Positions 1 through 29,774 of a stretch of DNA of 39,222 nucleotides are shown here, piece after piece. Below the pieces are notes generated by a model. That model was not told where the DNA came from. It made no database searches and worked only from the letters and a program-made list of their open reading frames with translations. A program made the position numbers and the translations under genes. The DNA is taken from positions 1 through 39,222 of IMG/VR virus record IMGVR_UViG_2690316149_000015; one strand, written 5' to 3'. This DNA is from a virus (lineage: Duplodnaviria; Heunggongvirae; Uroviricota; Caudoviricetes). Position 1 is the stretch's first letter, and every line of letters starts with the position of its first letter.

Positions 1-327
1 ATGCCTCATAACCCAAATACCTGGCTGGAGTTGGTCCAGAGCTGGTGGCGTGGAGACACACCGCTGGGCGCAGTGATTATGTCGATCGTTATGGCTGGCT
101 TGCGCATTGCCTATTTTGGCGGTGGTGGTGGCTGGAAACGAAAAACGCTCGAGATTTTGCTCTGTGGTGCTCTGACGCTGACTTTTGCATCCGCTCTTGA
201 GTATGTCGGATGGCCTAAATCTCTTTCTGTTGCCATTGGTGGCGGCGTTGGGCTGATCGGGGTCGATGCTATTCGTGGGGCTGCAATGAGAGTAATCGGT
301 AATAAGTTTGGTGGCTCTAAGGAGTAA
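1..327 (+). CDS. putative phage holin
   Basis: 108-aa ORF immediately upstream of the endolysin; hydrophobic glycine-rich segments (FGGGGGW, AIGGGVGLIG) with a charged C-terminus. Starts at window base 1, so the true N-terminus may lie upstream. Confidence 0.5.
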   Translation: MPHNPNTWLELVQSWWRGDTPLGAVIMSIVMAGLRIAYFGGGGGWKRKTLEILLCGALTLTFASALEYVGWPKSLSVAIGGGVGLIGVDAIRGAAMRVIGNKFGGSKE

Positions 328-330
328 TTT

Positions 331-807
331 ATGCAGGTACTAAATTCCCAGCGTAAAGCTTTCCTGGATATGGTGGCATGGTCAGAAGGAACGGATAACG
401 GGCGACAACCGACACGTAACCACGGTTATGACGTTATTGTCGGTGGCGAACTCTTCACTGATTACTCCGATCACCCTCGCAAACTTGTCACGCTAAACCC
501 GAAACTCAAATCAACAGCTGCAGGCCGTTATCAACTTCTTTCACGTTGGTGGGATGCTTACCGCAAGCAGCTTGGGCTGAAAGACTTCTCTCCCAGAAGC
601 CAGGACTCAGTGGCATTACAGCAGATTAAAGAGCGTGGCGCTTTACCGATGATTGATCGCGGCAATATTCGTCAGGCAATCGACCGTTGCAGCAATATCT
701 GGGCGTCTTTACCTGGTGCAGGTTACGGTCAGTATGAACATAAAATTGGCGACCTGATTTCCCGGTTTAAAGAGGCTGGTGGGGTGGTAAATGAAGCTGA
801 GATATAA
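331..807 (+). CDS. phage endolysin, lambda R-like lytic transglycosylase
   Basis: 158-aa translation (QRKAFLDM..AWSEGTDNGRQ..TRNHGYDVIVGG..) matches my recollection of the lambda R endolysin family nearly along its whole length. Confidence 0.9.
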   Translation: MQVLNSQRKAFLDMVAWSEGTDNGRQPTRNHGYDVIVGGELFTDYSDHPRKLVTLNPKLKSTAAGRYQLLSRWWDAYRKQLGLKDFSPRSQDSVALQQIKERGALPMIDRGNIRQAIDRCSNIWASLPGAGYGQYEHKIGDLISRFKEAGGVVNEAEI

Positions 808-1183
808 GCTGGTTATTGTTGCCTTCTTTGTTACCGTCATTGGTTCCTTCATCTGGTCTGCCGGGCATTACTACAGCAAATATCTGCACGAAAAGGAGCG
901 TGCTGATGAGGCTATACGAAATGCTGAATCAGCAACTGCCATTACCCGTAACGTTCTGCAATCACTGCAAATCATCAATACAGTTATAGAGGCTAACCAG
1001 CATGCAAAACAGCAGATTGCACTGGAGTCACAGAAAACCCAGGAAGATATCAAAGTGGCTGTTGCGGATGATGATTGTGCTTCACGTCCTGTGCCTGCTG
1101 CCGCTGCTGACCGGTTGCGGAAGTACGCGGACAGTTTACGTGAACACTCCGGCGGTACCACTGCCAGCCAGCTTGACTTCTGA
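791..1183 (+). CDS. i-spanin (Rz-like)
   Basis: Overlaps the endolysin stop; N-terminal transmembrane helix followed by a charged, probably coiled-coil region; correct position in a lysis cassette. Confidence 0.6.
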   Translation: MKLRYKLVIVAFFVTVIGSFIWSAGHYYSKYLHEKERADEAIRNAESATAITRNVLQSLQIINTVIEANQHAKQQIALESQKTQEDIKVAVADDDCASRPVPAAAADRLRKYADSLREHSGGTTASQLDF

Positions 1184-1316
1184 TACACCTGTACCGTTTA
1201 TACCCAACCCACTGACGTATGGTGCAAGTCTTGATTTGAATGTAAGTTTGTTATCCGCGTTGGCTCAATGTAATAGGGATAAGTCTGATATCAGAATCAT
1301 TGATAATCAAAATTGA
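1068..1316 (+). CDS. o-spanin lipoprotein (Rz1-like), overlapping Rz in +1 frame
   Basis: Internal ATG of ORF 1002..1316 gives MMIVLHVLCLLPLLTGCGS with a lipobox (LLTGC), followed by a proline-rich short protein. Confidence 0.5.
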   Translation: MMIVLHVLCLLPLLTGCGSTRTVYVNTPAVPLPASLTSDTPVPFIPNPLTYGASLDLNVSLLSALAQCNRDKSDIRIIDNQN

Positions 1317-1519
1317 TGTATATTTTTATCGTCATGTAGATAACGAACAAGGTATTCCTCTGATACGTTTCGTTGAATACAGGTCATGGGTAGGCATTGC
1401 AATATCGCTTCGAAATTATCTGTGATAATGCTCTTAATTTTGAATGTATGTATTTGGGAAAAGAGATAAAGTAATAGTCTAATTAATGGAGATATCCACA
1501 AAACACAAAAGGGACTATT

Positions 1520-2026
1520 ATGCGACCAGATCAATTTTTCTATCCAGATACTTTTACCTTTAATTCATCCACCTATTATGGTCAACGTGACTCATCTAAA
1601 GGTCGATTGTATATTCCTATTGAAAGTGACTTATGTCCATTTAATATCGGCGATATCATTGTGCAAAAAATGGTCGACAGGGAAAGACTATTTGAAGTGC
1701 TTGATTACGAGGTGCAAATTAGTCTCGAGGCTGGTTGCCCTGGCTACTCACATTTGGCGGTATTGATAGTGAATGCATTGGATGTAAAAGAGAAGCCGAA
1801 GCAGATTACGACCCATTTGACGTTTAACGGTGCTATTAATGCTGGTGGTGATTTTCAAGCCGGTAATGACAATTCGATCACAAAGAATATAACCATTCAA
1901 CAACTACATGATGCTATAGAGCATTGCAATGATCCAGAGGTTAAAAGCCTTTGGCAAAAGCTATTGGAAAATCCGACGTTTGCTTCAATTGCTTCAATAT
2001 TGGCAAAAAGTGCTTTAGGACAGTAA
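1520..2026 (+). CDS. hypothetical protein (AT-rich moron between lysis and packaging genes)
   Basis: 168-aa ORF in a clearly AT-rich block (about 1320-2030) between GC-normal lysis and HNH/terminase genes; no motif I recognise. Confidence 0.55.
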   Translation: MRPDQFFYPDTFTFNSSTYYGQRDSSKGRLYIPIESDLCPFNIGDIIVQKMVDRERLFEVLDYEVQISLEAGCPGYSHLAVLIVNALDVKEKPKQITTHLTFNGAINAGGDFQAGNDNSITKNITIQQLHDAIEHCNDPEVKSLWQKLLENPTFASIASILAKSALGQ

Positions 2027-2083
2027 TTCATCAAGCCCCATTCAATATGGGGTTTTTATGCTTATTACAAAGAGTTTTCTTCA

Positions 2084-2434
2084 ATGCCACCACGAACTCC
2101 AAAAGCCTGCCGTGTTCGCGGGTGCCGCCGTACCACCACTGACCCGTCAGGTTATTGCGAAAGCCACAAAAGCGAAGGCTGGAAGCAATACAAGCCAGGA
2201 CAATCCCGTCATCAGCGCGGCTACGGTTCGAAGTGGGACGTTATCCGCGCGCGTGTGCTGAAACGTGACAAAGGTTTATGTCAGTTATGTCTGCGCGCTG
2301 GTGTGGTGCGTGAGGCGAAAACTGTTGACCACATCATCCCTAAAGCGCATGGCGGCACTGATGCCGACTGTAATCTGCAGAGTCTGTGCTGGCCGTGTCA
2401 TAAGGCGAAGACGGCCCGTGAACGGCTTAAGTGA
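2084..2434 (+). CDS. HNH endonuclease, terminase-associated (copy 1)
   Basis: 116 aa with zinc-finger/HNH signature (CRVRGC..., DHIIPKAHGG, CNLQSLCWPCH) directly upstream of the terminase small subunit, the usual arrangement in HK97-like packaging modules. Confidence 0.85.
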   Translation: MPPRTPKACRVRGCRRTTTDPSGYCESHKSEGWKQYKPGQSRHQRGYGSKWDVIRARVLKRDKGLCQLCLRAGVVREAKTVDHIIPKAHGGTDADCNLQSLCWPCHKAKTARERLK

Positions 2435-2559
2435 TAATAATTCTCAACTGTCTGAGGGGAGGGGCGGGTCAAATCTCTGCGGCCTGACGTCTTCAGGACT
2501 GCCCGCCCCATCGTTTTTTTATACCCGCGAAAAATGAAATTTAACCAGGAGTGCCGCAT

Positions 2560-3045
2560 ATGGCTGGAACGGCGGGGCGTTCCGGGCGTCGCCCCAAGCC
2601 AACGGCGCGCAAGGCGCTGGCCGGAAACCCCGGCAAGCGAGCCCTGAATAAAGATGAACCTGTTTTTACGCCCATCAAAGGTGTTGAGCCACCGGAATGG
2701 TTCGCTGAAGAAGATCTCCCTCTCGCTACGATCATGTGGCAACTGACAACTAAAGAACTCTGCGGTCAGGGCCTGCTGTGCGTGACTGACCTCGCGGTGC
2801 TTGAGCGGTGGTGCGTGGCCTATGAGTTCTGGCGACGTGCCGTGAAAAATATTGCCAGCCAGGGCAACACCATTACCGGTGCAATGGGCGGTATGGTCAA
2901 AAACCCGGAGCTGACCGCCAAGAAAGAACAGGAGTCCGAGATGAGCAGCACGGGGGCAATGCTCGGACTCGACCCCAGCAGCCGCCAGCGTCTGATTGGC
3001 CTGGCGGGGAAGAAGAAAGCCACTAACCCGTTTCTGACAATCTGA
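2560..3045 (+). CDS. terminase small subunit, P27-type (copy 1)
   Basis: ORF 2551..3045; ATG at 2560 follows an AGGAG ribosome-binding site. Translation identical to the copy at 5662..6147; precedes the terminase large subunit. Confidence 0.8.
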
Positions 3046-3058
3046 AAATCATCGAATC

Positions 3059-3227
3059 ATGAGCCGGAAATCTTACCCCAACGTAAATGCTGCCAATCAG
3101 TATGCCCGGGATGTCGTGCGCGGAAAGATTGTGGCCTGCCAGTTTGTGATTCAGGCCTGCCAGCGCCATCTTGATGACCTGATGGCGGAAAAAAGTAAGT
3201 CGTTTCGTTACCGCTTCGACAAGGAAT
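3059..3227 (+). pseudogene. terminase large subunit N-terminal fragment, truncated by IS3
   Basis: First ~55 codons identical to the intact TerL at 6161; the reading frame diverges exactly where the IS3 terminal inverted repeat begins (3228). Confidence 0.85.
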
Positions 3228-3257
3228 TGATCCTACCCACGTAATATGGACACAGGC

Positions 3258-4124
3258 CTAAGCGAGGTTCTGGTTTTCAAATTGTTCCGGACTGAGGCCG
3301 CCACACCAACTGTGCCGCCGCCACCGATTGTAATCACATTCGATATAATTAAACACCGTTGCCCGCATTATTTCCCGGCTGATAAAGTGTTCTCCATGGA
3401 TACATTCCACTTTCAGCGAATGAAAGAAGCTTTCCACGCAGGCATTATCGTAGCAGCAACCTTTTGCGCTCATACTTCCACGCAGATTATGCCGCTTCAG
3501 TTGCGCCTGATAATCTGCTGAACAGTACTGGCCTCCACGGTCCGTGTGAACGATAACGTTCCGGGGCCTCTTACGCCGCCACAGCGCCATCTGCAGGGCA
3601 TCGCAGGCCAGTTGCGCCGTCATGCGTGGCGACATTGACCAGCCAATAACGGCACGTGACCACAGGTCAATGACCACTGCCAGATACAGCCAGCCTTCAT
3701 CTGTACGTAAGTACGTGATGTCTCCTGCCCACTTCTGGTTCGGGCCACTGGCGTAAAAATCCTGCTCCAACAGATTTTCTGACACAGGCAGGCCGTGTGC
3801 GCGGTAGCTGACCGGGCTGAACTTCCGGGAGGCCTTTGCCCTCAGTCCCTGACGGCGCAGGCTTGCCGCCACGGTTTTTACGTTAAAGGGGTAACCCTGA
3901 GCACGCAGTTCATCCGTCAGGCGTGGGGCACCGTAACGCTGTTTTGACCGGGTAAAAGCCGCGAGGACAACGCTGTCGCAGTGTTGGCGGAACTGCTGAC
4001 GCGTGCTTATCCTTGTCCGCCGCTGACACCACGTATACCAGCCGCTGCGGGCCACCCGGAGCACGCGGCACATTGCTTTGATGCTGAACTCAGCCTGATG
4101 TTTTTCAATAAAGACATACTTCAT
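3258..4124 (-). CDS. insF: IS3 transposase OrfB (DDE integrase domain)
   Basis: 288-aa translation recognised as IS3 InsF; overlaps orfA as expected for the -1 frameshift fusion. Confidence 0.9.
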
Positions 4125-4420
4125 TTCAGGCGCTTCGCGAAGTATGTCGCGGCCTTTTGGAGGATAGCCAGCTCTTCATCCCGTTCTGCCAGCTGGCGTT
4201 TGAGACGTGCAATCTCGGTAGACATCTCCAGTTCACGTTCAGAAGACGTCTGCTGATTTTGCTGTTTACTGCGCCAGTTGTAGAGCTGTGATTCATACAG
4301 GCTGAGTTCACGGGCTGCGGCAGTAACACCGATGCGTTCAGCAAGCTTCAGGGCTTCACTGCGAAATTCAGGCGAATGCTGTTTACGGGGTTTTTTACTG
4401 GTTGATACTGTTTTTGTCAT
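4121..4420 (-). CDS. insE: IS3 transposase OrfA (HTH subunit)
   Basis: ORF 4121..4429; ATG at 4420 follows a GAGGTGA ribosome-binding site; translation [13 protein letters not shown]... recognised as IS3 InsE. Confidence 0.9.
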
Positions 4421-4699
4421 GTGAGTCACCTCTGACTGAGAGTTTACTCACTTAGCCGCGTGTCCACTATTGCTGGGTAAGATCACTCATCACGTATTTG
4501 TGTTTCATGTTTGCGATTGTAGAAGTAGCCATTCAGTTCATTTAACTTTTTATGCATCCTATCGTGACTAATTGCTTCGATCAGTAAATCCTGAATCATA
4601 CTTTTCTCTAGGTAATCCGAACGGTTGTAAGTGACAGTATTGTGCTGGCATGTCATTAATATGTAAAGGTATTGTGAATGCCAGAAAGATAACGAAGTA

Positions 4700-5053
4700 T
4701 CATCGATAGAAAAACTTTACAGCCCACTCGTAAACAGCTTTGTAAATCGGTTCATGGTAAATACTATCGATACTATTCAGATGTGCGATCATCGCCTCCA
4801 CAGTTGTAGTGGTTGTTTCTAATATTTCGATTATTGCAGGGCGGTCATCATCTTCATCGAAGTATTCGAACAGCAGTACAGGTTTACCATGCAATTCAGC
4901 ATCTGAGACTCTAAGGTTACAACTACCGCTCAACTCAAAGTGAATTTTGTAATTACCTTCTACAGAATGGCCTACGGGGAAAAAGTATAGGGTGTCATCT
5001 TTGTTCAAAAGCCATGCCCATTCATAACTATTCATTTGTGAACTCCTGTTCAT
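4700..5053 (-). CDS. hypothetical protein (AT-rich moron upstream of second packaging module)
   Basis: 117-aa antisense ORF in the AT-rich block 4486-5120; acidic stretch (FEYFDEDDDRP); no recognisable motif. Confidence 0.45.
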   Translation of the reverse strand: MNRSSQMNSYEWAWLLNKDDTLYFFPVGHSVEGNYKIHFELSGSCNLRVSDAELHGKPVLLFEYFDEDDDRPAIIEILETTTTTVEAMIAHLNSIDSIYHEPIYKAVYEWAVKFFYR

Positions 5054-5185
5054 TGAGTTTCAACAACTATCAACTACATCCAGCGAAGCATAAAAGATCG
5101 TTTATGGCAAAACCGGAATGGAGTGCGATTCGATTCTGAGAAGGGTGCCACGTATCGTACGCGAACCATCCAAGAGGATTATGCA

Positions 5186-5536
5186 ATGCCCCCACGAACC
5201 CCAAAAGCCTGCCGCGTTCGCGGCTGCCGCCATACCACCACTGACTCGTCAGGCTATTGCGAAAGCCACAAAAGCGAAGGCTGGAAGCAATACAAGCCAG
5301 GCCAGTCCCGACACCAGCGCGGTTATGGTTCGAAATGGGATGTTATCCGTGAACGTGTGCTCAAGCGTGACAAAGGCCTGTGCCAGTTGTGCCTGCGTGC
5401 TGGTGTGGTGCGCGAGGCGAAAACCGTTGACCACATCATCCCTAAAGCGCATGGCGGCACTGATGCCGACTGTAATCTGCAGAGTCTGTGCTGGCCGTGT
5501 CATAAGGCGAAGACGGCCCGTGAACGGCTTAAGTGA
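5186..5536 (+). CDS. HNH endonuclease, terminase-associated (copy 2)
   Basis: ATG at 5186 inside ORF 5123..5536, after a GAGGA ribosome-binding site. The 5' third differs by about 10% from copy 1 (R/H, P/S, A/E changes), then becomes identical. Confidence 0.85.
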   Translation: MPPRTPKACRVRGCRHTTTDSSGYCESHKSEGWKQYKPGQSRHQRGYGSKWDVIRERVLKRDKGLCQLCLRAGVVREAKTVDHIIPKAHGGTDADCNLQSLCWPCHKAKTARERLK

Positions 5537-5661
5537 TAATAATTCTCAACTGTCTGAGGGGAGGGGCGGGTCAAATCTCTGCGGCCTGACGTCTTCAGGA
5601 CTGCCCGCCCCATCGTTTTTTTATACCCGCGAAAAATGAAATTTAACCAGGAGTGCCGCAT

Positions 5662-6147
5662 ATGGCTGGAACGGCGGGGCGTTCCGGGCGTCGCCCCAAG
5701 CCAACGGCGCGCAAGGCGCTGGCCGGAAACCCCGGCAAGCGAGCCCTGAATAAAGATGAACCTGTTTTTACGCCCATCAAAGGTGTTGAGCCACCGGAAT
5801 GGTTCGCTGAAGAAGATCTCCCTCTCGCTACGATCATGTGGCAACTGACAACTAAAGAACTCTGCGGTCAGGGCCTGCTGTGCGTGACTGACCTCGCGGT
5901 GCTTGAGCGGTGGTGCGTGGCCTATGAGTTCTGGCGACGTGCCGTGAAAAATATTGCCAGCCAGGGCAACACCATTACCGGTGCAATGGGCGGTATGGTC
6001 AAAAACCCGGAGCTGACCGCCAAGAAAGAACAGGAGTCCGAGATGAGCAGCACGGGGGCAATGCTCGGACTCGACCCCAGCAGCCGCCAGCGTCTGATTG
6101 GCCTGGCGGGGAAGAAGAAAGCCACTAACCCGTTTCTGACAATCTGA
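5662..6147 (+). CDS. terminase small subunit, P27-type (copy 2)
   Basis: Translation identical to copy 1; immediately precedes the intact TerL. Confidence 0.85.
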
Positions 6148-6160
6148 AAATCATCGAATC

Positions 6161-7894
6161 ATGAGCCGGAAATCTTACCCCAACGTAAATGCTGCCAATC
6201 AGTATGCCCGGGATGTCGTGCGCGGAAAGATTGTGGCCTGCCAGTTTGTGATTCAGGCCTGCCAGCGCCATCTTGATGACCTGATGGCGGAAAAAAGTAA
6301 GTCGTTTCGTTACCGCTTCGACAAGGATCTGGCTGAACGGGCCGCCAAATTTATTCAGCTGTTGCCGCACACCAAGGGTGAGTGGGCATTCAAGAGGATG
6401 CCCATCACGCTGGAGCCGTGGCAGCTCTTTGTGATCTGCTGCGCGTTTGGCTGGGTCAATAAAGGCTCCCGGCTGCGCCGCTTCCGTGAGGTGTATACCG
6501 AAATCCCCCGTAAGAACGGCAAATCGGCAATCTCTGCCGGTGTCGCCCTGTATTGTTTTGCCTGTGATAACGAGTTCGGCGCGGAAGTGTATTCCGGTGC
6601 CACGACGGAGAAACAGGCATGGGAAGTCTTTCGTCCGGCAAGACTGATGTGTAAACGCACACCCATGCTGACGGAAGCGTTCGGGATTGAGGTTAACGCC
6701 TCAAACATGAACCGTCCGGAGGATGGCGCGCGGTTTGAACCGCTGATCGGCAACCCCGGTGATGGTTCATCACCCCACTGTGCCGTGGTGGATGAATATC
6801 ACGAGCACGCCACCGATGCGCTTTATACCACAATGCTTACCGGGATGGGGGCGCGACGTCAGCCACTGATGTGGGCCATCACCACCGCCGGGTACAACAT
6901 TGAGGGGCCGTGCTACGACAAGCGGCGGGAAGTCATCGAGATGCTCAACGGCTCGGTGCCTAACGATGAACTGTTCGGGATCATCTATACCGTTGATGAA
7001 GGTGACGACTGGACCGACCCGCAGGTGCTGGAAAAAGCCAATCCAAATATTGGCGTATCGGTTTATCGCGAATTTTTGTTAAGTCAGCAGCAGCGTGCGA
7101 AAAATAACGCCCGTCTGGCAAACGTCTTTAAAACAAAACACCTCAATATCTGGGTGTCGGCACGTTCGGCGTATTTCAACCTGGTGAGCTGGCAGAGCTG
7201 CGAGGATAAATCACTGACCCTTGAGCAGTTCGAGGGGCAGCCGTGCATTCTGGCCTTTGACCTGGCGCGTAAGCTGGATATGAACAGCATGGCGCGACTT
7301 TATACCCGCGAGATTGACGGTAAAACGCATTACTACAGTGTGGTCCCGCGCTTCTGGGTACCGTATGACACGGTGTACAGCGTCGAGAAAAATGAAGATA
7401 GACGGACAGCCGAACGCTTTCAGAAATGGGTGGAAATGGGCGTCCTGACCGTTACCGATGGTGCAGAGGTGGATTATCGCTACATCCTCGAAGAGGCCAA
7501 AGCGGCGAACAAAATCAGCCCGGTCAGTGAGTCACCCATCGACCCCTTCGGGGCGACCGGGCTGTCACATGACCTTGCTGATGAAGATCTGAATCCCGTC
7601 ACTATCGTCCAGAACTTCGCCAATATGTCCGATCCGATGAAAGAGCTGGAAGCAGCGATTGAATCGGGACGCTTTCATCATGACGGCAATCCCATCATGA
7701 CCTGGTGTATCGGCAATGTGGTCGGCAAAAACATGCCAGGTAACGATGATTTAGTGAAGCCCGTCAAGGAGCAGGCGGAAAACAAAATCGATGGTGCGGT
7801 TGCACTGATTATGACGATCGGTCGGGCAATGCTCAAAGAACCTGACGATTTCCTCTCATCTCTTGATCCGGACGATGATCTCTTAATTCTATGA
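6161..7894 (+). CDS. terminase large subunit
   Basis: 577 aa with ATPase and nuclease regions (e.g. EIPRKNGKS Walker A-like, VVDEYHE); position between TerS and portal. Confidence 0.95.
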
Positions 7895-8052
7895 AATCAC
7901 TAATTGCTGATGTTATCGGGCTGGCTGGTTTTGGCCTGCTTACGTGCGGGGTTTACCTGCAGTTTGGTATGGCTCCGGCTCTGATTTTGTCCGGTGCTTT
8001 ACTGCTGGTGGGCGCACTGGCTATGGTCAGAAGGGGGACGCGTGCTGCTTGA
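7891..8052 (+). CDS. small hydrophobic protein between terminase and portal
   Basis: 53-codon ORF ([26 protein letters not shown]...) below the ORF-track cutoff; its start overlaps the TerL stop (ATGA) and its stop overlaps the likely portal start. Confidence 0.35.
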
Positions 8053-9268
8053 TGCTCTGTTCAGAAGTAAATCACTGGAGAATCCTTCCACCCCGATAAC
8101 CGGGGATGCCGTTGATACTGATGGGCTGTTCCGGGCTGACGTTTATGTCAGTCCTGAGACTGCGATGAAACTGGCTGCGGTGTATTCCTGTATCTATGTC
8201 CTGTCTTCCAGCCTTGCCCAGATGCCGTTGCATGTTATGCGCAGGCACAAGGGGAAGGTTGAACCCGCACGCGATCATCCTGCGTTTTATCTGGTTCATG
8301 ATGAGCCCAATACCTGGCAAACCAGCTACAAATGGCGCGAACTGAAGCAACGTCACATCCTTGGCTGGGGGAATGGGTATACCTGGGTGAAACGTAATCG
8401 TCGCGGTGAAGTCATATCCCTGGATTGCTGTATGCCGTGGGAAACGACGCTGATGAATACTGGTGGCCGATATACCTACGGTTTGTACAACGAATATGGG
8501 GCGTTTGCGATCAGTCCGGACGATATGATCCACATCCGTGCGCTGGGTAATAATCAGAAGATGGGGCTGAGTCCGATTATGCAACATGCCGAAACAATAG
8601 GCATGGGGATGAGCGGTCAGAAGTACACAGAAAGCTTCTTCAGCGGTAATGCCCGTCCGGCGGGGATAGTATCCGTTAAAAGCGGACTCAATAAGGAAAG
8701 CTGGGGCTGGCTTAAAGATCAGTGGCAGAAGGCATCGCAGGCGTTACGCCGCCAGGAAAACAAAACCATGCTGCTGCCAGCCGATCTGGATTACAAGGCA
8801 CTGACTGTGTCGCCAGTTGACGCTCAGATCATTGACATGATGAAGCTGAACCGTTCAATGATCGCCGGTATTTTCAATATTCCTGCGCACATGATTAATG
8901 ACCTCGAAAAAGCCACCTTCTCCAATATTTCTGCGCAGGCGATTCAGTTTGTCCGCTACACGATGATGCCGTGGGTGACGAACTGGGAGCAGGAGCTTAA
9001 CCGTCGCTTGTTTACCCGCGCTGAGTTAGCCGCCGGGTATTACGTCAGGTTCAATCTGACGGGGCTTTTACGCGGAACTCCGCAGGAGCGCGCGCAATTC
9101 TATCACTTCGCTATTACCGATGGATGGATGAGCCGTAATGAGGCCCGCGCATTCGAGGATATGAATCCGGTTGAAGGGCTGGACGAGATGCTGGTAAGCG
9201 TGAATGCTGCTAACCCGGCAGGAGATTTTAAGCCCCCAAAAAACGATGAGGGAAAAACCAATGAATGA
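8042..9268 (+). CDS. portal protein (HK97 family)
   Basis: ORF 7994..9268; the likely start is GTG at 8042, preceded by AAGGGGGA. 400+ aa, sited between terminase and prohead protease. Confidence 0.85.
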   Translation: MLLDALFRSKSLENPSTPITGDAVDTDGLFRADVYVSPETAMKLAAVYSCIYVLSSSLAQMPLHVMRRHKGKVEPARDHPAFYLVHDEPNTWQTSYKWRELKQRHILGWGNGYTWVKRNRRGEVISLDCCMPWETTLMNTGGRYTYGLYNEYGAFAISPDDMIHIRALGNNQKMGLSPIMQHAETIGMGMSGQKYTESFFSGNARPAGIVSVKSGLNKESWGWLKDQWQKASQALRRQENKTMLLPADLDYKALTVSPVDAQIIDMMKLNRSMIAGIFNIPAHMINDLEKATFSNISAQAIQFVRYTMMPWVTNWEQELNRRLFTRAELAAGYYVRFNLTGLLRGTPQERAQFYHFAITDGWMSRNEARAFEDMNPVEGLDEMLVSVNAANPAGDFKPPKNDEGKTNE

Positions 9269-23050: not shown

Positions 23051-23494
23051 ATGAATAAAGTTAAAAGTGTTTACAGCCCTTCCGAAAATGCAATCTACAA
23101 CGCAGCGCTATACGAAAGTTATATCAAGGAGGGGACATGGCCGCAGGATGGTATTGAAATCAGCGATGAGGATGCTGTCAGATTTAATGGGGGAAATAAG
23201 CCAACAGGAAAAATGCTGGGAATGGTTTCAGGGGCCCTTGCATGGGTTGATGAGCCGCCGCTTTCACCAGAACAGAAAATATCAGATGCAGAAAACATGA
23301 AAGCCACATTTCGTGCAAAAGCTGACAGTGAAATATCCTGGCGTCAGGATGCTGTTGATGCGGGCATTGCAACTGATGAAGAAACTTCAACTCTCACCCA
23401 ATGGAAGAAATACCGTGTGCTGCTGATGCGTGTTGATACTTCAACAGCCCCCGATATTGAATGGCCTACGCCTCCGGCAGTTCAGGCCAGATGA
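23051..23494 (+). CDS. tail fibre assembly protein (Tfa), inside the invertible segment
   Basis: 147 aa; C-terminal region (WKKYRVLLMRVDTSTAPDIEWPTPP) typical of Tfa/U-family chaperones; converges on a second tfa on the other strand. Confidence 0.85.
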   Translation: MNKVKSVYSPSENAIYNAALYESYIKEGTWPQDGIEISDEDAVRFNGGNKPTGKMLGMVSGALAWVDEPPLSPEQKISDAENMKATFRAKADSEISWRQDAVDAGIATDEETSTLTQWKKYRVLLMRVDTSTAPDIEWPTPPAVQAR

Positions 23495-24068
23495 CATCCG
23501 GCGCGGTGCTGGTATCTGTTGCCGTCACCGCGTCGATATAATCCAGCACAACGTTAAGGCGAGTTGTTTCTGCCTGCATCAACTTCCGTCCGGCCTGCAA
23601 TTTCAGTTGAATCAGACTGATGGAAGCCATAGCAGCATCAATAAGCGACTGGCGCTGTGCTTCTGCTGCATCTACTGCGGCGCTATGCTGTGCCTCGGTA
23701 TCCGTCACCCATTTCTCACCATCCCATTCATCGTATGGCGTTAACGGGGCGATAGTGGTCGTATTTTCAGGATAATCACCCGGACCTGTGATTTCTTTCA
23801 ATTCTCCTGTTTCGGTGCTATAAACGATTTCACCGCGATGGTCTGGCACATATTCCCATGAGTTTAAATCCATCGAACGGCAGATAGCATAACCCGCCTT
23901 ATGTGTGCCAGGGGCATCTAAACAGGAATATGCAGGGATACCGACACCAATGGCAAGATATTCATTTGAAGTGGAAATATATTCCCGAGTTTCACCATCA
24001 TAGTTATAGACGGTAATATTCCCCGCCTTCGTGGCAATAAGCTCGCTATTTAATACGGCGTTATCCAT
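23466..24068 (-). CDS. alternative tail fibre assembly protein (Tfa'), inside the invertible segment
   Basis: 200 aa on the minus strand with the same C-terminal Tfa signature (TSTAPDVIWPELPE); 3' ends of the two tfa genes overlap. Confidence 0.85.
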   Translation of the reverse strand: MDNAVLNSELIATKAGNITVYNYDGETREYISTSNEYLAIGVGIPAYSCLDAPGTHKAGYAICRSMDLNSWEYVPDHRGEIVYSTETGELKEITGPGDYPENTTTIAPLTPYDEWDGEKWVTDTEAQHSAAVDAAEAQRQSLIDAAMASISLIQLKLQAGRKLMQAETTRLNVVLDYIDAVTATDTSTAPDVIWPELPEA

Positions 24069-24523
24069 TATGCAGCCCTCACGATAAAGTTAAATGCAAT
24101 ATTTCGTGGACGGGTTTCACTCCCGCCATATGATGATGTAAATCCCGAATATGCCCGGTGTCCCGCATCCGTCGTATTAGCCCAGGAAGGACCGCTAGAA
24201 GTATAGATGACCCCATTGTAATCATGGCCGTGTGCCTCAATGCTCCCGTCCTGAGCAGACAGGAGAGTCCGTCCTGAATCAATTCCTCTTCCATCATCCC
24301 ACCCACGAATGAATTCGCCGCGTAAATCTGGCAATTTATTTGTCGGATAAACTTTTGCCAGTTCCGGATACTCTTCGGCAGAAAAAGCTGCACCGTTGCA
24401 TTTCAGCCAACCTGTTGGCGGTGTGACTGAAGGCCACGGAACAGGCACACCTACGGGTAATGCAGAGCCTTCTCCCAAACCAACGTTTATGAAAATGCAG
24501 AAATAACGAGCAAATGGCATCAT
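24068..24523 (-). CDS. silent alternative tail fibre C-terminal cassette (S'v-like), expressed only after inversion
   Basis: Contains the PVGVPVPWP..GW..C..G..F tail-fibre tip motif; its 5' end encodes NVGLGE across the right crossover site, in frame with LGLGE at the left site. The ORF-track start is probably not a real start. Confidence 0.8.
   Translation of the reverse strand: MMPFARYFCIFINVGLGEGSALPVGVPVPWPSVTPPTGWLKCNGAAFSAEEYPELAKVYPTNKLPDLRGEFIRGWDDGRGIDSGRTLLSAQDGSIEAHGHDYNGVIYTSSGPSWANTTDAGHRAYSGFTSSYGGSETRPRNIAFNFIVRAA
24470..24495. promoter_or_regulatory. Hin/Gin/Pin-family inversion crossover site (right)
   Basis: TTCTCCCAAACC-AA-CGTTTATGAAAA; reverse complement TTTTCATAAACG-TT-GGTTTGGGAGAA shares the central TT and 14 bp with the left site; lies just upstream of pin. 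Confidence 0.65.
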
Positions 24524-24549
24524 TCCTGCTTTTGTCAGGGAGATCTACC

Positions 24550-25104
24550 ATGCTTATTGGCTATGTACGTGTGTCAACAAATGACCAGAACACAGATCTA
24601 CAACGTAATGCGCTGAACTGTGCAGGATGCGAGCTGATTTTTGAAGACAAGATAAGCGGTACAAAGTCCGAAAGGCCGGGACTGAAAAAACTGCTCAGGA
24701 CATTATCGGCAGGTGACACTCTGGTTGTCTGGAAACTGGACCGACTGGGGCGCAGTATGCGGCATCTTGTCGTGCTGGTGGAGGAGTTGCGCGAACGAGG
24801 CATCAACTTTCGTAGTCTGACGGATTCAATTGATACCAGTACCCCAATGGGGCGCTTTTTCTTTCATGTGATGGGTGCCCTGGCTGAAATGGAACGAGAA
24901 CTGATTGTTGAACGAACAAAAGCTGGACTGGAAGCTGCTCGCGCACAGGGACGAATTGGTGGACGTCGTCCCAAACTTACACCAGAACAATGGGCGCAGG
25001 CCGGGCGATTAATTGCATCAGGCGTTCCTCGCCAGAAGGTGGCGATCATCTATGATGTTGGTATATCGACACTGTATAAGAAGTTTCCGGTCGGAGATAA
25101 ATGA
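24550..25104 (+). CDS. pin: serine DNA invertase, Pin/Hin/Gin family
   Basis: ORF 24514..25104, start taken at MLIGYVRVSTNDQ; catalytic serine motif and C-terminal HTH; recognised as essentially the e14 PinE sequence. Confidence 0.95.
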   Translation: MLIGYVRVSTNDQNTDLQRNALNCAGCELIFEDKISGTKSERPGLKKLLRTLSAGDTLVVWKLDRLGRSMRHLVVLVEELRERGINFRSLTDSIDTSTPMGRFFFHVMGALAEMERELIVERTKAGLEAARAQGRIGGRRPKLTPEQWAQAGRLIASGVPRQKVAIIYDVGISTLYKKFPVGDK

Positions 25105-25105
25105 A

Positions 25106-25143
25106 ACCGTAGCACGTCGTATGCAAGAAGATCGTGCTGCGGT
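25106..25143. terminator. putative bidirectional hairpin between convergent pin and GIY-YIG genes
   Basis: ACCGTAGCACG ... CGTGCTGCGGT, an 11-bp stem with one mismatch and a 16-nt loop, in the 60-bp gap between the two stop codons. Confidence 0.35.
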
Positions 25144-25164
25144 TTATGCTTATCACTTAAAGAC

Positions 25165-26034
<870 letters not shown>

Positions 26035-26117
26035 CTAACCCTTTGAATTTACATAGCGCAAAAAGATACCTTTCCTCATAATGTGAGCTAATTTTATGTT
26101 TCGTTTGATGATCGGGT

Positions 26118-26179
26118 CGGTCTCGAAAACCGGAGTAGGGGCAACTCTACCGGGGGTTCAAATCCCCCTCTCTCCGCCA
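26118..26179 (+). other. partial tRNA-Ser (serU-like, anticodon CGA) 3' fragment; probable prophage attR core
   Basis: CGGTCTCGAAAACCGGAGTAGGGGCAACTCTACCGGGGGTTCAAATCCCCCTCTCTCCGCCA matches my recollection of the serU 3' 62 nt (anticodon loop, variable arm, T arm, acceptor 3' strand, CCA). No D-arm or 5' acceptor sequence upstream. Confidence 0.65.
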
Positions 26180-26278
26180 CTTTATCAATGACTTATCTCC
26201 CGACTTCCCGCCTTGCTTTTCCTAAACAGAACAATCGTAGAATATTCTTGAAGGGTTAGATCGTCACTGTTTTCTGTT

Positions 26279-26505
26279 CAGAACAGAAAATATCAGATGC
26301 AGAAAACATGAAAGCCACATTTCGTGCAAAAGCTGACAGTGAAATATCCTGGCGTCAGGATGCTGTTGATGCGGGCATTGCAACTGATGAAGAAACTTCA
26401 ACTCTCACCCAATGGAAGAAATACCGTGTGCTGCTGATGCGTGTTGATACTTCAACAGCCCCCGATATTGAATGGCCTACGCCTCCGGCAGTTCAGGCCA
26501 GATGA
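26279..26505 (+). pseudogene. 5'-truncated tail fibre assembly gene (copy 2 of tfa 3' part)
   Basis: Duplicate of the tfa C-terminal 75 codons only; the N-terminal part is missing because the repeat unit starts inside tfa. Confidence 0.7.
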
Positions 26506-27079
26506 CATCCGGCGCGGTGCTGGTATCTGTTGCCGTCACCGCGTCGATATAATCCAGCACAACGTTAAGGCGAGTTGTTTCTGCCTGCATCAACTTCCGT
26601 CCGGCCTGCAATTTCAGTTGAATCAGACTGATGGAAGCCATAGCAGCATCAATAAGCGACTGGCGCTGTGCTTCTGCTGCATCTACTGCGGCGCTATGCT
26701 GTGCCTCGGTATCCGTCACCCATTTCTCACCATCCCATTCATCGTATGGCGTTAACGGGGCGATAGTGGTCGTATTTTCAGGATAATCACCCGGACCTGT
26801 GATTTCTTTCAATTCTCCTGTTTCGGTGCTATAAACGATTTCACCGCGATGGTCTGGCACATATTCCCATGAGTTTAAATCCATCGAACGGCAGATAGCA
26901 TAACCCGCCTTATGTGTGCCAGGGGCATCTAAACAGGAATATGCAGGGATACCGACACCAATGGCAAGATATTCATTTGAAGTGGAAATATATTCCCGAG
27001 TTTCACCATCATAGTTATAGACGGTAATATTCCCCGCCTTCGTGGCAATAAGCTCGCTATTTAATACGGCGTTATCCAT
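26477..27079 (-). CDS. alternative tail fibre assembly protein (copy 2)
   Basis: Identical translation to 23466..24068. Confidence 0.8.
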   Translation of the reverse strand: MDNAVLNSELIATKAGNITVYNYDGETREYISTSNEYLAIGVGIPAYSCLDAPGTHKAGYAICRSMDLNSWEYVPDHRGEIVYSTETGELKEITGPGDYPENTTTIAPLTPYDEWDGEKWVTDTEAQHSAAVDAAEAQRQSLIDAAMASISLIQLKLQAGRKLMQAETTRLNVVLDYIDAVTATDTSTAPDVIWPELPEA

Positions 27080-27534
27080 TATGCAGCCCTCACGATAAAG
27101 TTAAATGCAATATTTCGTGGACGGGTTTCACTCCCGCCATATGATGATGTAAATCCCGAATATGCCCGGTGTCCCGCATCCGTCGTATTAGCCCAGGAAG
27201 GACCGCTAGAAGTATAGATGACCCCATTGTAATCATGGCCGTGTGCCTCAATGCTCCCGTCCTGAGCAGACAGGAGAGTCCGTCCTGAATCAATTCCTCT
27301 TCCATCATCCCACCCACGAATGAATTCGCCGCGTAAATCTGGCAATTTATTTGTCGGATAAACTTTTGCCAGTTCCGGATACTCTTCGGCAGAAAAAGCT
27401 GCACCGTTGCATTTCAGCCAACCTGTTGGCGGTGTGACTGAAGGCCACGGAACAGGCACACCTACGGGTAATGCAGAGCCTTCTCCCAAACCAACGTTTA
27501 TGAAAATGCAGAAATAACGAGCAAATGGCATCAT
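27079..27534 (-). CDS. silent tail fibre C-terminal cassette (copy 2)
   Basis: Identical translation to 24068..24523. Confidence 0.75.
   Translation of the reverse strand: MMPFARYFCIFINVGLGEGSALPVGVPVPWPSVTPPTGWLKCNGAAFSAEEYPELAKVYPTNKLPDLRGEFIRGWDDGRGIDSGRTLLSAQDGSIEAHGHDYNGVIYTSSGPSWANTTDAGHRAYSGFTSSYGGSETRPRNIAFNFIVRAA
27481..27506. promoter_or_regulatory. second copy of the right inversion crossover site
   Basis: Position of 24470-24495 plus 3011 within the identical repeat. Confidence 0.6.
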
Positions 27535-27560
27535 TCCTGCTTTTGTCAGGGAGATCTACC

Positions 27561-28115
27561 ATGCTTATTGGCTATGTACGTGTGTCAACAAATGACCAGA
27601 ACACAGATCTACAACGTAATGCGCTGAACTGTGCAGGATGCGAGCTGATTTTTGAAGACAAGATAAGCGGTACAAAGTCCGAAAGGCCGGGACTGAAAAA
27701 ACTGCTCAGGACATTATCGGCAGGTGACACTCTGGTTGTCTGGAAACTGGACCGACTGGGGCGCAGTATGCGGCATCTTGTCGTGCTGGTGGAGGAGTTG
27801 CGCGAACGAGGCATCAACTTTCGTAGTCTGACGGATTCAATTGATACCAGTACCCCAATGGGGCGCTTTTTCTTTCATGTGATGGGTGCCCTGGCTGAAA
27901 TGGAACGAGAACTGATTGTTGAACGAACAAAAGCTGGACTGGAAGCTGCTCGCGCACAGGGACGAATTGGTGGACGTCGTCCCAAACTTACACCAGAACA
28001 ATGGGCGCAGGCCGGGCGATTAATTGCATCAGGCGTTCCTCGCCAGAAGGTGGCGATCATCTATGATGTTGGTATATCGACACTGTATAAGAAGTTTCCG
28101 GTCGGAGATAAATGA
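27561..28115 (+). CDS. pin: serine DNA invertase Pin (copy 2)
   Basis: Identical translation to 24550..25104. Confidence 0.9.
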   Translation: MLIGYVRVSTNDQNTDLQRNALNCAGCELIFEDKISGTKSERPGLKKLLRTLSAGDTLVVWKLDRLGRSMRHLVVLVEELRERGINFRSLTDSIDTSTPMGRFFFHVMGALAEMERELIVERTKAGLEAARAQGRIGGRRPKLTPEQWAQAGRLIASGVPRQKVAIIYDVGISTLYKKFPVGDK

Positions 28116-28175
28116 AACCGTAGCACGTCGTATGCAAGAAGATCGTGCTGCGGTTTATGCTTATCACTTAAAGAC

Positions 28176-29045
<870 letters not shown>

Positions 29046-29128
29046 CTAACCCTTTGAATTTACATAGCGCAAAAAGATACCTTTCCTCATAATGTGAGCT
29101 AATTTTATGTTTCGTTTGATGATCGGGT

Positions 29129-29190
29129 CGGTCTCGAAAACCGGAGTAGGGGCAACTCTACCGGGGGTTCAAATCCCCCTCTCTCCGCCA
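29129..29190 (+). other. partial tRNA-Ser 3' fragment (copy 2)
   Basis: Duplicate of 26118..26179 within the tandem repeat. Confidence 0.6.
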
Positions 29191-29774
29191 CTTTATCAAT
29201 GACTTATCTCCCGACTTCCCGCCTTGCTTTTCCTAAACAGAACAATCGTAGAATATTCTTGAAGGGTTAGATCGTCACTGTTTTCTGTTCGATACTGTGA
29301 CATTCAGCACTTGATTCGCTATGGATCTGACAGGAAGGTTTCGAGCGAAAATCTGCAGTTATTCAGTCGTTTTCTTATCGGTCACCATTATTCTTTTAGA
29401 CATTGATCCTACAAAGCTGCCGCAAAGTTGGTGGTGGGAACTGAAGTTGCGTAGAGAAGGGGTCAATACCCGGAGGCACACATGGGCTGGCAAAAGTGTA
29501 GCGGTATTAGGCGCAGCTATTTAGCCTAGTTATGTTTTATGAAAACTTGATGTCATATAAGTGTCTTACTTATTGGCTGTAAATAAGTTTTTTCTAAGGA
29601 ATTGTTTCTTGAGTATCATTTGTAACTGTAACGGAATTTATAATCCTTTGCTTTATTGTTACGGTATTTTTTATCACACCCTATTTTTTATGTGGTTTTT
29701 TATACTGAAGTTTGGCAAAGTGAACTTTATATGCATATACTTCATCCTAGTTTCAGTTAAATTGGGTGGATGAT

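Follow-up and report, generated by a model that had tools for sequence, protein, structure and literature searches.

A horizontally acquired cassette at the lysis-packaging junction of an SfV/e14-like prophage, and a tentative reading of its 168-residue product as a defence protein

Morons are reportedly accessory cassettes in the late region of phage genomes (the definition of Hendrix and Juhala). Classical lambdoid representatives are bor and lom of phage lambda and gp15 of HK97; Bor is a lipoprotein encoded on the opposite strand, and HK97 gp15 is a membrane protein preventing the entry of DNA. Here we analyse a window of 39,222 nucleotides (nt), the whole of the IMG/VR record IMGVR_UViG_2690316149_000015 of a virus of the Caudoviricetes, and focus on an open reading frame (ORF) of 168 amino acids (aa) at positions 1520..2026 (+), which lies in an AT-rich block between the spanin genes and an HNH endonuclease gene. 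Like the lambdoid morons, it is a single small gene of deviant composition among conserved late genes, with a terminator-like element of its own and a variable presence, and it occupies a position just after the lysis genes that is equivalent to that of lambda bor. In contrast to Bor and HK97 gp15, to which it bears no relation in sequence or fold, its product is predicted to be cytoplasmic and to carry a C-terminal helix.

For the protein itself, likenesses come from amyloid signalling. The signature G-phi-Q-phi-G is common to the RHIM, the fungal PP motif and the bacterial BASS3 motif, which are found C-terminally in effectors and N-terminally in NLR proteins encoded by adjacent genes (Dyrka et al., bioRxiv 10.1101/2020.01.06.895854), and the sharing of a motif by adjacent genes defines amyloid-signalling pairs (bioRxiv 10.1101/2020.01.06.895854; bioRxiv 10.1101/2024.11.07.622273). 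In the Bab/Agp system, which is borne by prophages of Escherichia coli, a small membrane effector of helical structure kills the cell upon amyloid signalling (bioRxiv 10.1101/2024.11.07.622273). Both Bab/Agp and the family described here reside in cargo or defence hotspots of E. coli prophages and link a short N/G-rich motif, disordered in the monomer, to a small domain of helices that has a hydrophobic helix at its end; in Bab/Agp adjacent genes share the motif, as they do for two relatives of the window gene (loci L036 and L046). Yet there is no sequence homology: the family motif is internal and RHIM-like rather than a C-terminal BASS11, the hydrophobic helix is C-terminal in the family and N-terminal in Bab/Agp, and an Agp-type partner (TPR-GreA/B-PIN) is missing beside the window gene, whose product unites the sensor, the motif and the putative effector in a single chain. 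Bab/Agp acts via membrane-directed cell death, whereas amyloid formation and defence by the family are putative.

The family resembles RHIM, PP and BASS3 in a central phi-Q-phi-G followed by x-x-N, set within some 25 residues that are rich in N, Q and G and show alternating hydrophobics. BASS motifs have been described in multicellular Actinobacteria and Cyanobacteria, whereas the family is hosted by unicellular Proteobacteria and by phages and satellites, and the window protein has neither a Bell domain nor an NLR partner. In HET-S/NWD2 of Podospora, the terminal helix of a membrane-targeting helical domain (the HeLo pore-former) is controlled by an adjacent amyloid motif; the likeness of the family is one of concept, in reversed polarity with the motif N-terminal to the helices, and its Pfam matches are sub-threshold. 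Finally, AbiTii (PF18864; AbiT of Lactococcus) is seen as a sensor-type domain that forms the N-terminal part of abortive infection (Abi) proteins, with effectors fused to it on the C-terminal side (PMC3710099; PMC13064643). The likeness to AbiTii proteins consists in the succession of N-terminal domain, N/Q/G-rich segment, helices and hydrophobic C-terminal helix, but the window protein gave no Pfam match to PF18864 and the C-terminal modules are not homologous.

An identical locus is present in E. coli QDFD216, where the gene product is WP_032249113.1, a RefSeq “hypothetical protein”; judging from this locus, the element is an SfV/e14-like prophage whose head is of the HK97 type and whose contractile tail is of the Mu type. 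Comparison with related prophages provides good support at the sequence level for the view that positions 1276-2083 form a horizontally acquired accessory cassette (moron) in the slot between Rz1 and HNH. The cassette and its borders comprise the following features:

1068..1316 (+): Rz1 (LysC), o-spanin gene nested within Rz; it forms the left border of the slot (offset-transferred RefSeq annotation of the identical locus plus ORFs)
1276..2083 (+): mosaic AT-rich cargo block (moron), which includes the last ~40 nt of Rz1 and takes the place of the 91-bp Rz1-HNH spacer of SfV
1317..1519 (+): AT-rich non-coding upstream region, GC about 0.31
1307-1534 (-): ORF of 75 aa with TTG start in the region upstream of ORF 1520-2026, without annotation in RefSeq and set aside here
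1509-1514 (+): AAGGGA, resembling a ribosome-binding site, 5 nt upstream of the ATG
1520..2026 (+): 168-aa ORF with ATG start, uncharacterised family PHROG 5789 (phrog_5789, E 6.6e-79)
2033..2060 (+): intrinsic-terminator-like hairpin AAGCCCCAT-TCAAT-ATGGGGTTT and T-run, 7 nt past the stop codon
2084..2434 (+): HNH endonuclease gene (PF01844, E 5.3e-15), right border of the slot

In BLASTN comparisons, homology to SfV and SfIV ends at 1275-1296 within the 3' end of Rz1 and restarts exactly at the ATG of HNH (2084), and the spacer between the two genes amounts to 91 bp in SfV versus 808 bp in the window. The cassette is thus a matter of presence or absence with sharp mosaic boundaries (breakpoints 1275/2084 versus SfV). 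Its composition deviates as well: GC falls to 0.31-0.42 between about 1300 and 2100, with 0.47-0.60 on both sides, and averages 0.364 in the block (1276-2083) compared to 0.494 in the left flank (1-1275) and 0.556 in the right flank (2084-3250). The same deviation was found in all nine diverse homologue loci examined, where genes with a GC of 0.39-0.43 lie inside DNA of 0.46-0.56. Downstream, the hairpin at 2033-2055 with its T-run probably serves as a terminator, and elements of this type were seen by eye just downstream of the gene in seven of nine diverse homologues. Since sharp presence/absence boundaries, deviant composition and a terminator-like element were all found, the moron reading is supported by every sequence-level sign except a demonstrated promoter. 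An extended -10-like element (TGTGATAAT, 1421-1429), spotted by eye, is a candidate promoter element. Its sequence doubles as the right half of a perfect palindrome (ATTATC-TGT-GATAAT, 1415-1429), which could be an operator. No Rfam family was found in window positions 1-5300.

The slot between Rz1 and HNH is highly polymorphic in E. coli. The 1-kb region is matched in part by 867 of 5,426 complete genomes and completely by 29, and a query made of the two flanks only found both close together in 316 of the 5,426. At least seven different states of the slot could be told apart:

State 1: empty, 91 bp
State 2: cargo of the ORF 1520-2026 type
State 3: 145-aa transmembrane (TM) protein with an N-terminal hydrophobic segment
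State 4: 124-aa ORF, opposite strand
State 5: GrlR-family protein, 106 aa
State 6: 64-aa ORF
State 7: two-gene cassette on the opposite strand, intact in strain 1297KP and represented in the window by ORF 4700-5053 (-)

The alternative cargos are all AT-rich and mutually unrelated. The GrlR-family regulatory protein (106 aa; L031 931-1251 (+), matches H59 and H60) recurs as cargo of this slot in E. coli prophages. The first-pass annotation of the window had described a 168-aa ORF in an AT-rich block between Rz/Rz1 and HNH, preceded by an AT-rich region of its own, and had taken it for a moron at a junction that recurrently takes up accessory genes. Coordinates and GC profile agree with this description, the upstream region is seen at 1317..1519, the variable occupancy of the slot bears out the recurrent insertion, and presence/absence, deviant GC, the terminator-like hairpin and mobile homologues speak for the moron at the sequence level. 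As a moron the finding is ordinary, and a moron at the lysis/packaging junction is known; the interest lies in a family without a name in curated libraries or in the literature found. The junction is a busy cargo slot, which is useful for mining small accessory genes.

Homologues of the window protein form 22 clusters with 48-98% identity and a nearly gap-free alignment, and an exhaustive profile search of 1.84 billion proteins yielded 79 representative clusters. Two of these are giant Big_9/cadherin repeat proteins (4,708 aa with 13 matching stretches; 1,793 aa with 5), discounted as repeat-driven matches. This conservation marks ORF 1520-2026 as a genuine gene. Among deposited phage genomes, a relative was detectable in only three. 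A first scan of genome contigs with the alignment of the close family gave no match, and a word-indexed search with an alignment of the C-terminal module returned 11 short fragments. The tail module, run against species-representative genomes, found 18 loci, in taxa including Pluralibacter, Kluyvera, Enterobacter, Photorhabdus, Proteus, Pseudomonas, Vibrio and Psychrobacter as well as metagenome-assembled genomes of Sulfurimonas, Kiritimatiellales and Flavobacteriaceae. For the relatives P0034, P0066, P0069 and P0098, the contigs located were too short to show neighbouring genes. As an occupant of cargo slots in prophages and in satellites that form capsids, the family ranges from Enterobacterales to Campylobacterota.

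The placement of homologues bears on the question of whether the gene belongs to the preceding lysis cassette, as a late lysis-accessory protein such as an XhlA-like regulator or enhancer of holins or spanins. In the window and in three other phage backgrounds with differing holin and endolysin types the gene is co-oriented and directly 3' of the spanin genes; close homologues (48-72% identity) follow the spanin genes of phages with different holin/endolysin families, and altogether homologues were found after three non-homologous lysis cassettes. The C-terminal helix looks membrane-active, and the C-terminal part of one relative weakly matches phrog_937 “hemolysin” (E 0.0026). Nonetheless, we consider a lysis role improbable: most otherwise homologous prophages lack the gene, including SfV, SfII and SfIV, which still lyse, and the gene has a terminator-like hairpin of its own. 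Some relatives lie on the opposite strand within packaging or head modules. One is a lone gene between TerL and portal in a BPP-1-like podovirus, and in Serratia prophages a lone opposite-strand homologue sits between a DUF927 primase gene and the virion genes. Moreover, relatives are abundant in satellites resembling phage-inducible chromosomal islands of the capsid-forming kind (cfPICIs), a family defined as being without holins (PMC10085698), and six such loci gave no match to holin, lysozyme or Rz in a local comparison. XhlA is not among the first 25 Pfam families listed for 60 relatives, and an assignment of the window protein to the holin/XhlA type was rejected, as it shows neither a TM segment nor a match to that family.

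In an IMG/VR phage (L026), two family paralogues at a distance of 2 kb bracket the lysis cassette: a phrog_16834-type member with the core NVQVGNHN (5623-6114 (-)) between a Q-like gene and the holin gene, and a PHROG 5789-type member with the core DFQAGSVN (8001-8504 (+)) after Rz1. The Q-to-holin interval is a further cargo slot (L001 17352-18347 (-); L061 1-402 (-)), which holds a gene for an SDH-family Clp-fold serine protease on the opposite strand in one strain and one for a KAP-family NTPase in another.

The architecture of the window protein was derived from an AlphaFold2 model built with a 20-sequence alignment and from conservation within the family:

1520..1786 (+): aa 1-89, predicted N-terminal beta-barrel of six strands, pLDDT 81-92, putative sensor or binding domain
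aa 90-118: linker predicted to be disordered, pLDDT <50
1823..1897 (+): aa 102-126, N/Q/G-rich linker motif FNGAINAGGDFQAGNDNSITKNITI with the RHIM-like phi-Q-phi-G-x-x-N
1853-1873 (+): motif core F112-Q-A-G-N-D-N118
1895..2023 (+): aa 126-168, predicted C-terminal module of three helices (126-134, 139-150, 152-165), pLDDT 65-77

Foldseek gave nothing significant. The N-terminal barrel shows a generic fold resemblance to the barrels of head-closure or stopper proteins at 6-14% identity, which would be compatible with a morphogenetic or virion-associated protein derived from such a precursor. This origin is very improbable: equally good scores are reached by PilZ and by FMN-binding split barrels, a BLASTP comparison with the head-closure protein of the prophage itself yields E 0.05 over 22 aa, and variable presence, frequent location on the opposite strand, interchangeable N-domains and the hydrophobic tail of relatives all speak against a virion component. 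An assignment to head-closure/stopper proteins (Phage_HCP, SPP1 gp16-like) was rejected, for neither sequence or profile homology nor the head-tail-joining position was found, and so was the c-di-GMP receptor PilZ, whose binding motifs RxxxR and (D/N)xSxxG are absent. Homology to a structural or lysis-accessory protein, which the earlier annotation had named as evidence that would count against its reading, was checked and is absent at the sequence level, apart from the generic barrel resemblance and the one weak “hemolysin” match.

Curated libraries are silent about the protein. Neither Pfam nor NCBIfam contains a match, and the statement of the first-pass annotation that the ORF holds no assignable motif stands as far as such libraries go; the RHIM-like motif and a modular C-terminal tail come to light only when the family is compared. 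Among 60 diverse members, aligned at a mean column identity of 17%, six columns are conserved to at least 90%, three in the linker (Q113, G115, N118) and three in the helices (A141, K142, N151). Three of the six most conserved columns thus lie in a segment modelled with pLDDT <50. The pattern phi-Q-phi-G-x-x-N is present in 80 of 97 family entries, with FQAG (23 entries, the subfamily of the window protein), VQVG (19), VQIG (10) and IQIG (5) as the commonest cores. The segment consensus, xNIGSISGxQVQVGNNNSQxxNITI, is N/Q/G-rich with alternating hydrophobic residues, and the motif peptide of relatives reads NIGSISSQQVQVGNNNNQIVNITI.

The RHIM of RIPK3 reads ...SGVQVGDNNYL..., and the VQVGNNNSQ of the family is close to this stretch, while DFQAGNDNSI of the window protein retains only the Q, the G and the asparagines. 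The Pfam RHIM model (PF12721, gathering score 20 bits) matches 11 of the 60 relatives at E<1, the most of any Pfam family. One relative, P0098, exceeds the threshold with 24.9 bits (E 1.4e-5), ten more stay below it, and scores of 10-16 bits were obtained for five relatives (P0067, P0056, P0093, P0090 and P0088). The Pfam model of the HET-S motif weakly matches two of the 60 relatives, likewise below threshold.

Motif and tail are retained across relatives with unrelated N-domains. Many family matches cover only the C-terminal 70-80 residues and carry other N-termini, and the domains exchanged at this end include the beta-barrel, a phrog_16834 type, a DUF2513-like winged helix-turn-helix domain, a Zn-ribbon and longer domains without assignment. 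The C-terminal module of the window protein closes with a small-residue helix, PTFASIASILAKSALGQ. In most members the last helix is of the type TVASIIGAGASALLGLL, with a Kyte-Doolittle mean of 1.6-2.1 over 17 residues. The helix of the window subfamily (PTFASIASILAKSALGQ) is amphipathic and less hydrophobic, with a best 17-residue value of ~0.7 in the close homologues P0002 and P0012; the Eisenberg mean hydrophobicity of aa 153-168 is 0.38 in the window protein versus 0.70 in relatives. With respect to a membrane-targeting effector domain of the Bell or HeLo type, the model predicts three helices, the last of them rich in small residues, and no solved structure matched the module in sequence or fold. 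Sequence profile matches to the Protein Data Bank (PDB) were to designed helical repeats and were set aside as noise.

The genomic company of relatives adds to this picture. At locus L036, a family member composed of Zn-ribbon, motif and tail (P0054) starts 25 nt after the gene of a 217-aa AbiTii-domain protein on the same strand (PF18864 over residues 7-190, E 1.9e-42). The C-terminus of the AbiTii protein reads ...NVNIGSITGHQVQLGNNNTQ, and its last 27 residues, ...EMNVNIGSITGHQVQLGNNNTQHKKTAKR, are a copy of the family motif (motif-HMM E 1.5e-8), which by hand count is ~78% identical to the copy in P0054 (...FNIGSISSQQVQVGNNNNQ). At L046 in Enterobacter soli, a degenerate version of the motif (FNIDTVNSKYVQFGTSNN) occurs in the product of the next gene upstream, and at L035 two paralogues are adjacent. 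Another relative (L037) lies in an island with genes for a resolvase, a RecD2-like helicase, DUF2971, HipA and AIPR, and one relative weakly matches PDC-S53 of PADLOC (E 1.9e-4). In seven cfPICI-like loci (the named genomes L043, L044, L046, L048, L053 and L055 and the metagenomic L034), the family gene occupies the same opposite-strand cargo slot. The hosts are Pluralibacter, Kluyvera, Enterobacter, Photorhabdus and Proteus, and the layout according to local BLASTP is int-alpA-(AntA)-primase, the family gene and then capsid-protease-portal-adaptor-HNH-TerS-TerL, with the cfPICI gene set taken from PMC10085698.

In total, 80 AbiTii homologues were retrieved, most of them about 300 aa long. In most of the ~300-aa proteins (P0111-P0188), the C-terminal ~110 aa are unannotated and consist of an N/Q/G-rich strand-like segment (NIRIENFQGILGNV..S.V.Q) followed by helices, the last of which is a Gly/Ala-rich hydrophobic helix (GGWEISVATAGGVLAAALSKFYGL). 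A subclass of ~278 aa shows LQIGDYNSI instead; its classification as a RHIM was rejected, there being no Pfam match and a likeness by eye only.

On these grounds, we favour the view that the window protein is a defence protein of the abortive-infection or exclusion type composed of a sensor, a self-assembly motif and a membrane tail, and we give this view a probability of roughly 0.4. The mechanism, i.e., sensing, assembly, membrane action and the defence phenotype, is drawn by analogy with Bab/Agp and HET-S. During the lytic cycle, the cassette would be transcribed along with the late operon. In the lysogen, transcription would probably run from a putative promoter in the AT-rich upstream region to the terminator of the cassette. 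The product, most likely a cytoplasmic three-part protein, would recognise its trigger, probably a component of an infecting phage, through the N-terminal beta-barrel, and recognition would drive self-association via the RHIM-like phi-Q-phi-G-x-x-N as an amyloid-type or beta-arcade switch. Self-association might then cluster or release the C-terminal small-residue helix, which would engage and damage the inner membrane. As a consequence, the infection would be aborted or excluded, and the lysogen population and the resident element would be protected.

The motif could also serve the opposite purpose, namely counter-defence, if the protein were a decoy that co-assembles with, and poisons, an amyloid-signalling or immune complex of the host in the manner of herpesvirus RHIM proteins. 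Eukaryotic viruses do employ RHIMs as decoys (bioRxiv 10.1101/2024.11.07.622273; PMC13506858), and the gene is borne by phages and satellites and, from gene order, expected to be read with the late operon. We regard this function as quite improbable, since no host system of Enterobacteria is known to use the motif, BASS11 of Bab/Agp being different (bioRxiv 10.1101/2024.11.07.622273). Moreover, a conserved hydrophobic tail with swapped N-domains resembles an effector plus sensor rather than a minimal decoy, and the motif-sharing neighbour at L036 is itself of the Abi type and part of the same operon.

Several observations weigh against the sensor-motif-tail defence protein as applied to the window, and to some extent to the family as a whole. 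As to the motif, the window protein has no match to the Pfam RHIM model at E<=1, its core is FQAG instead of the (I/V)Q(I/V)G tetrad, its sequence G-D-F-Q-A-G-N-D-N does not keep the G-phi-Q-phi-G signature, and the motif is internal (aa 102-126 of 168), unlike the terminal motifs of known amyloid-signalling pairs. Because exact signature and terminal position both fail, we do not class the window protein among the RHIM proteins. As to the tail, the weakly hydrophobic, amphipathic helix of the window protein makes membrane insertion less obvious than for the cfPICI-type relatives, and the C-terminal module has no sequence or fold match in the PDB. As to partners, no second motif-bearing ORF was seen in the window or in most other loci, the motif-sharing AbiTii pair is known from a single 3.2-kb contig (L036), and the module was judged not to be homologous to the C-terminal part of AbiTii proteins (hhalign probability 4%), the architecture being analogous only. 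PADLOC (PADLOC-DB 2.0) contains no match for the window protein, whose family PHROG 5789 is listed as “function unknown”, nor for eight of nine further relatives tested, and a consensus scan of 1276-1519 on the plus strand found no sigma-70 site. Finally, a link to lysis would also be compatible with the location behind spanin genes, on the same strand, in at least four phages, and the association with cargo slots fails to separate defence from other accessory functions. For the window protein, our reading is weakened in particular by the FQAG core, the weaker tail and the lack of a partner.

Several of these points also fit a lysogenic-conversion or accessory gene unrelated to phage defence, such as a factor in membrane or stress physiology, a host-interaction factor or a regulator. 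The cassette would still be a moron, and the conservation of the RHIM-like segment would reflect nothing more than a role in oligomerisation or as a linker. The same slot holds a GrlR-family regulator and small proteins without a defence signature, lambda bor, at the equivalent junction, serves host fitness, the amphipathic tail offers no clear membrane anchor, and the PADLOC result for the window protein agrees. In spite of this, we judge a role outside defence unlikely: the family recurs in satellite cargo slots and beside Abi-type genes (AbiTii, AIPR) across phyla, and swapped N-domains around a constant motif and tail are typical of sensor-effector immune proteins. Nor was a signal peptide, a lipobox or another envelope-targeting feature seen in the window protein, the N-terminus of which folds as a soluble barrel in the model.

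Compared to this defence reading of the single protein, a broader claim concerning the class is more doubtful. PHROG 5789, PHROG 16834 and their relatives might constitute an unrecognised class of single-chain “amyloid-switch” abortive-infection proteins, in which an exchangeable sensor, a self-templating phi-Q-phi-G-x-x-N motif and a membrane-disrupting helix are combined, which would be spread by morons and cfPICI satellites in unicellular Proteobacteria and would occasionally be split into pairs that share the motif with sensors of the AbiTii type. In that case, phages and satellites of enterobacteria would be added to the range of RHIM-type signalling, and a mechanism would become available for the C-terminal regions of AbiTii proteins. 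The proposed mechanism, if true, would place amyloid-type immune switching beyond animals, fungi, multicellular bacteria and the single case of Bab/Agp, as a common and compact one-gene design of mobile elements, and the family would offer a very small (~170 aa) and genetically tractable model in E. coli. An internal RHIM-like motif within a one-chain sensor-effector, borne by unicellular Proteobacteria and by their phages and cfPICIs, is a variant that was not found in the amyloid-signalling literature consulted by search.

The remaining genes around the slot and the other conspicuous features of the left end of the window are as follows:

1-327: lambda-type holin gene, upstream of ORF 1520-2026
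331-807: lysozyme gene (GH24), upstream of ORF 1520-2026
791-1183: Rz (DUF2570)
Downstream of HNH: TerS, P27-family small terminase gene (PF05119, E 5e-21)
3258-4124 (-) and 4121-4429 (-): orfB and orfA of an IS3 element, terminal repeat ending at 4485
4700-5053 (-): ORF within a second AT-rich cargo (4486-5171) directly upstream of the second HNH gene; phrog_14397 of unknown function, without a Pfam or PADLOC match

The segment comprising HNH, TerS and the 5' part of TerL is present twice, at 2070-3225 and 5172-6327, with 97% identity. The first TerL copy ends at 3225, where the IS3 element (~3228-4485 (-)) starts. Because of this duplication and the stop of TerL at IS3, the window seems to join two SfV-like prophages at an IS3-associated junction, and the lysis cassette together with the moron studied here would appear to belong to a remnant without structural genes of its own. 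In strain 1297KP, the slot between Rz1 and HNH contains the gene of ORF 4700-5053 together with a 189-aa gene, both on the opposite strand; the 189-aa gene is replaced or interrupted by IS3 in strain PS1Thumoskin9 and in the window. Farther downstream, positions 23268-26278 and 26279-29289 form a perfect tandem duplication of 3,011 bp (100% identity), either a real recent event or an assembly artefact, which contains tail-fibre-assembly-like ORFs, a 196-aa ORF and a 274-aa ORF.

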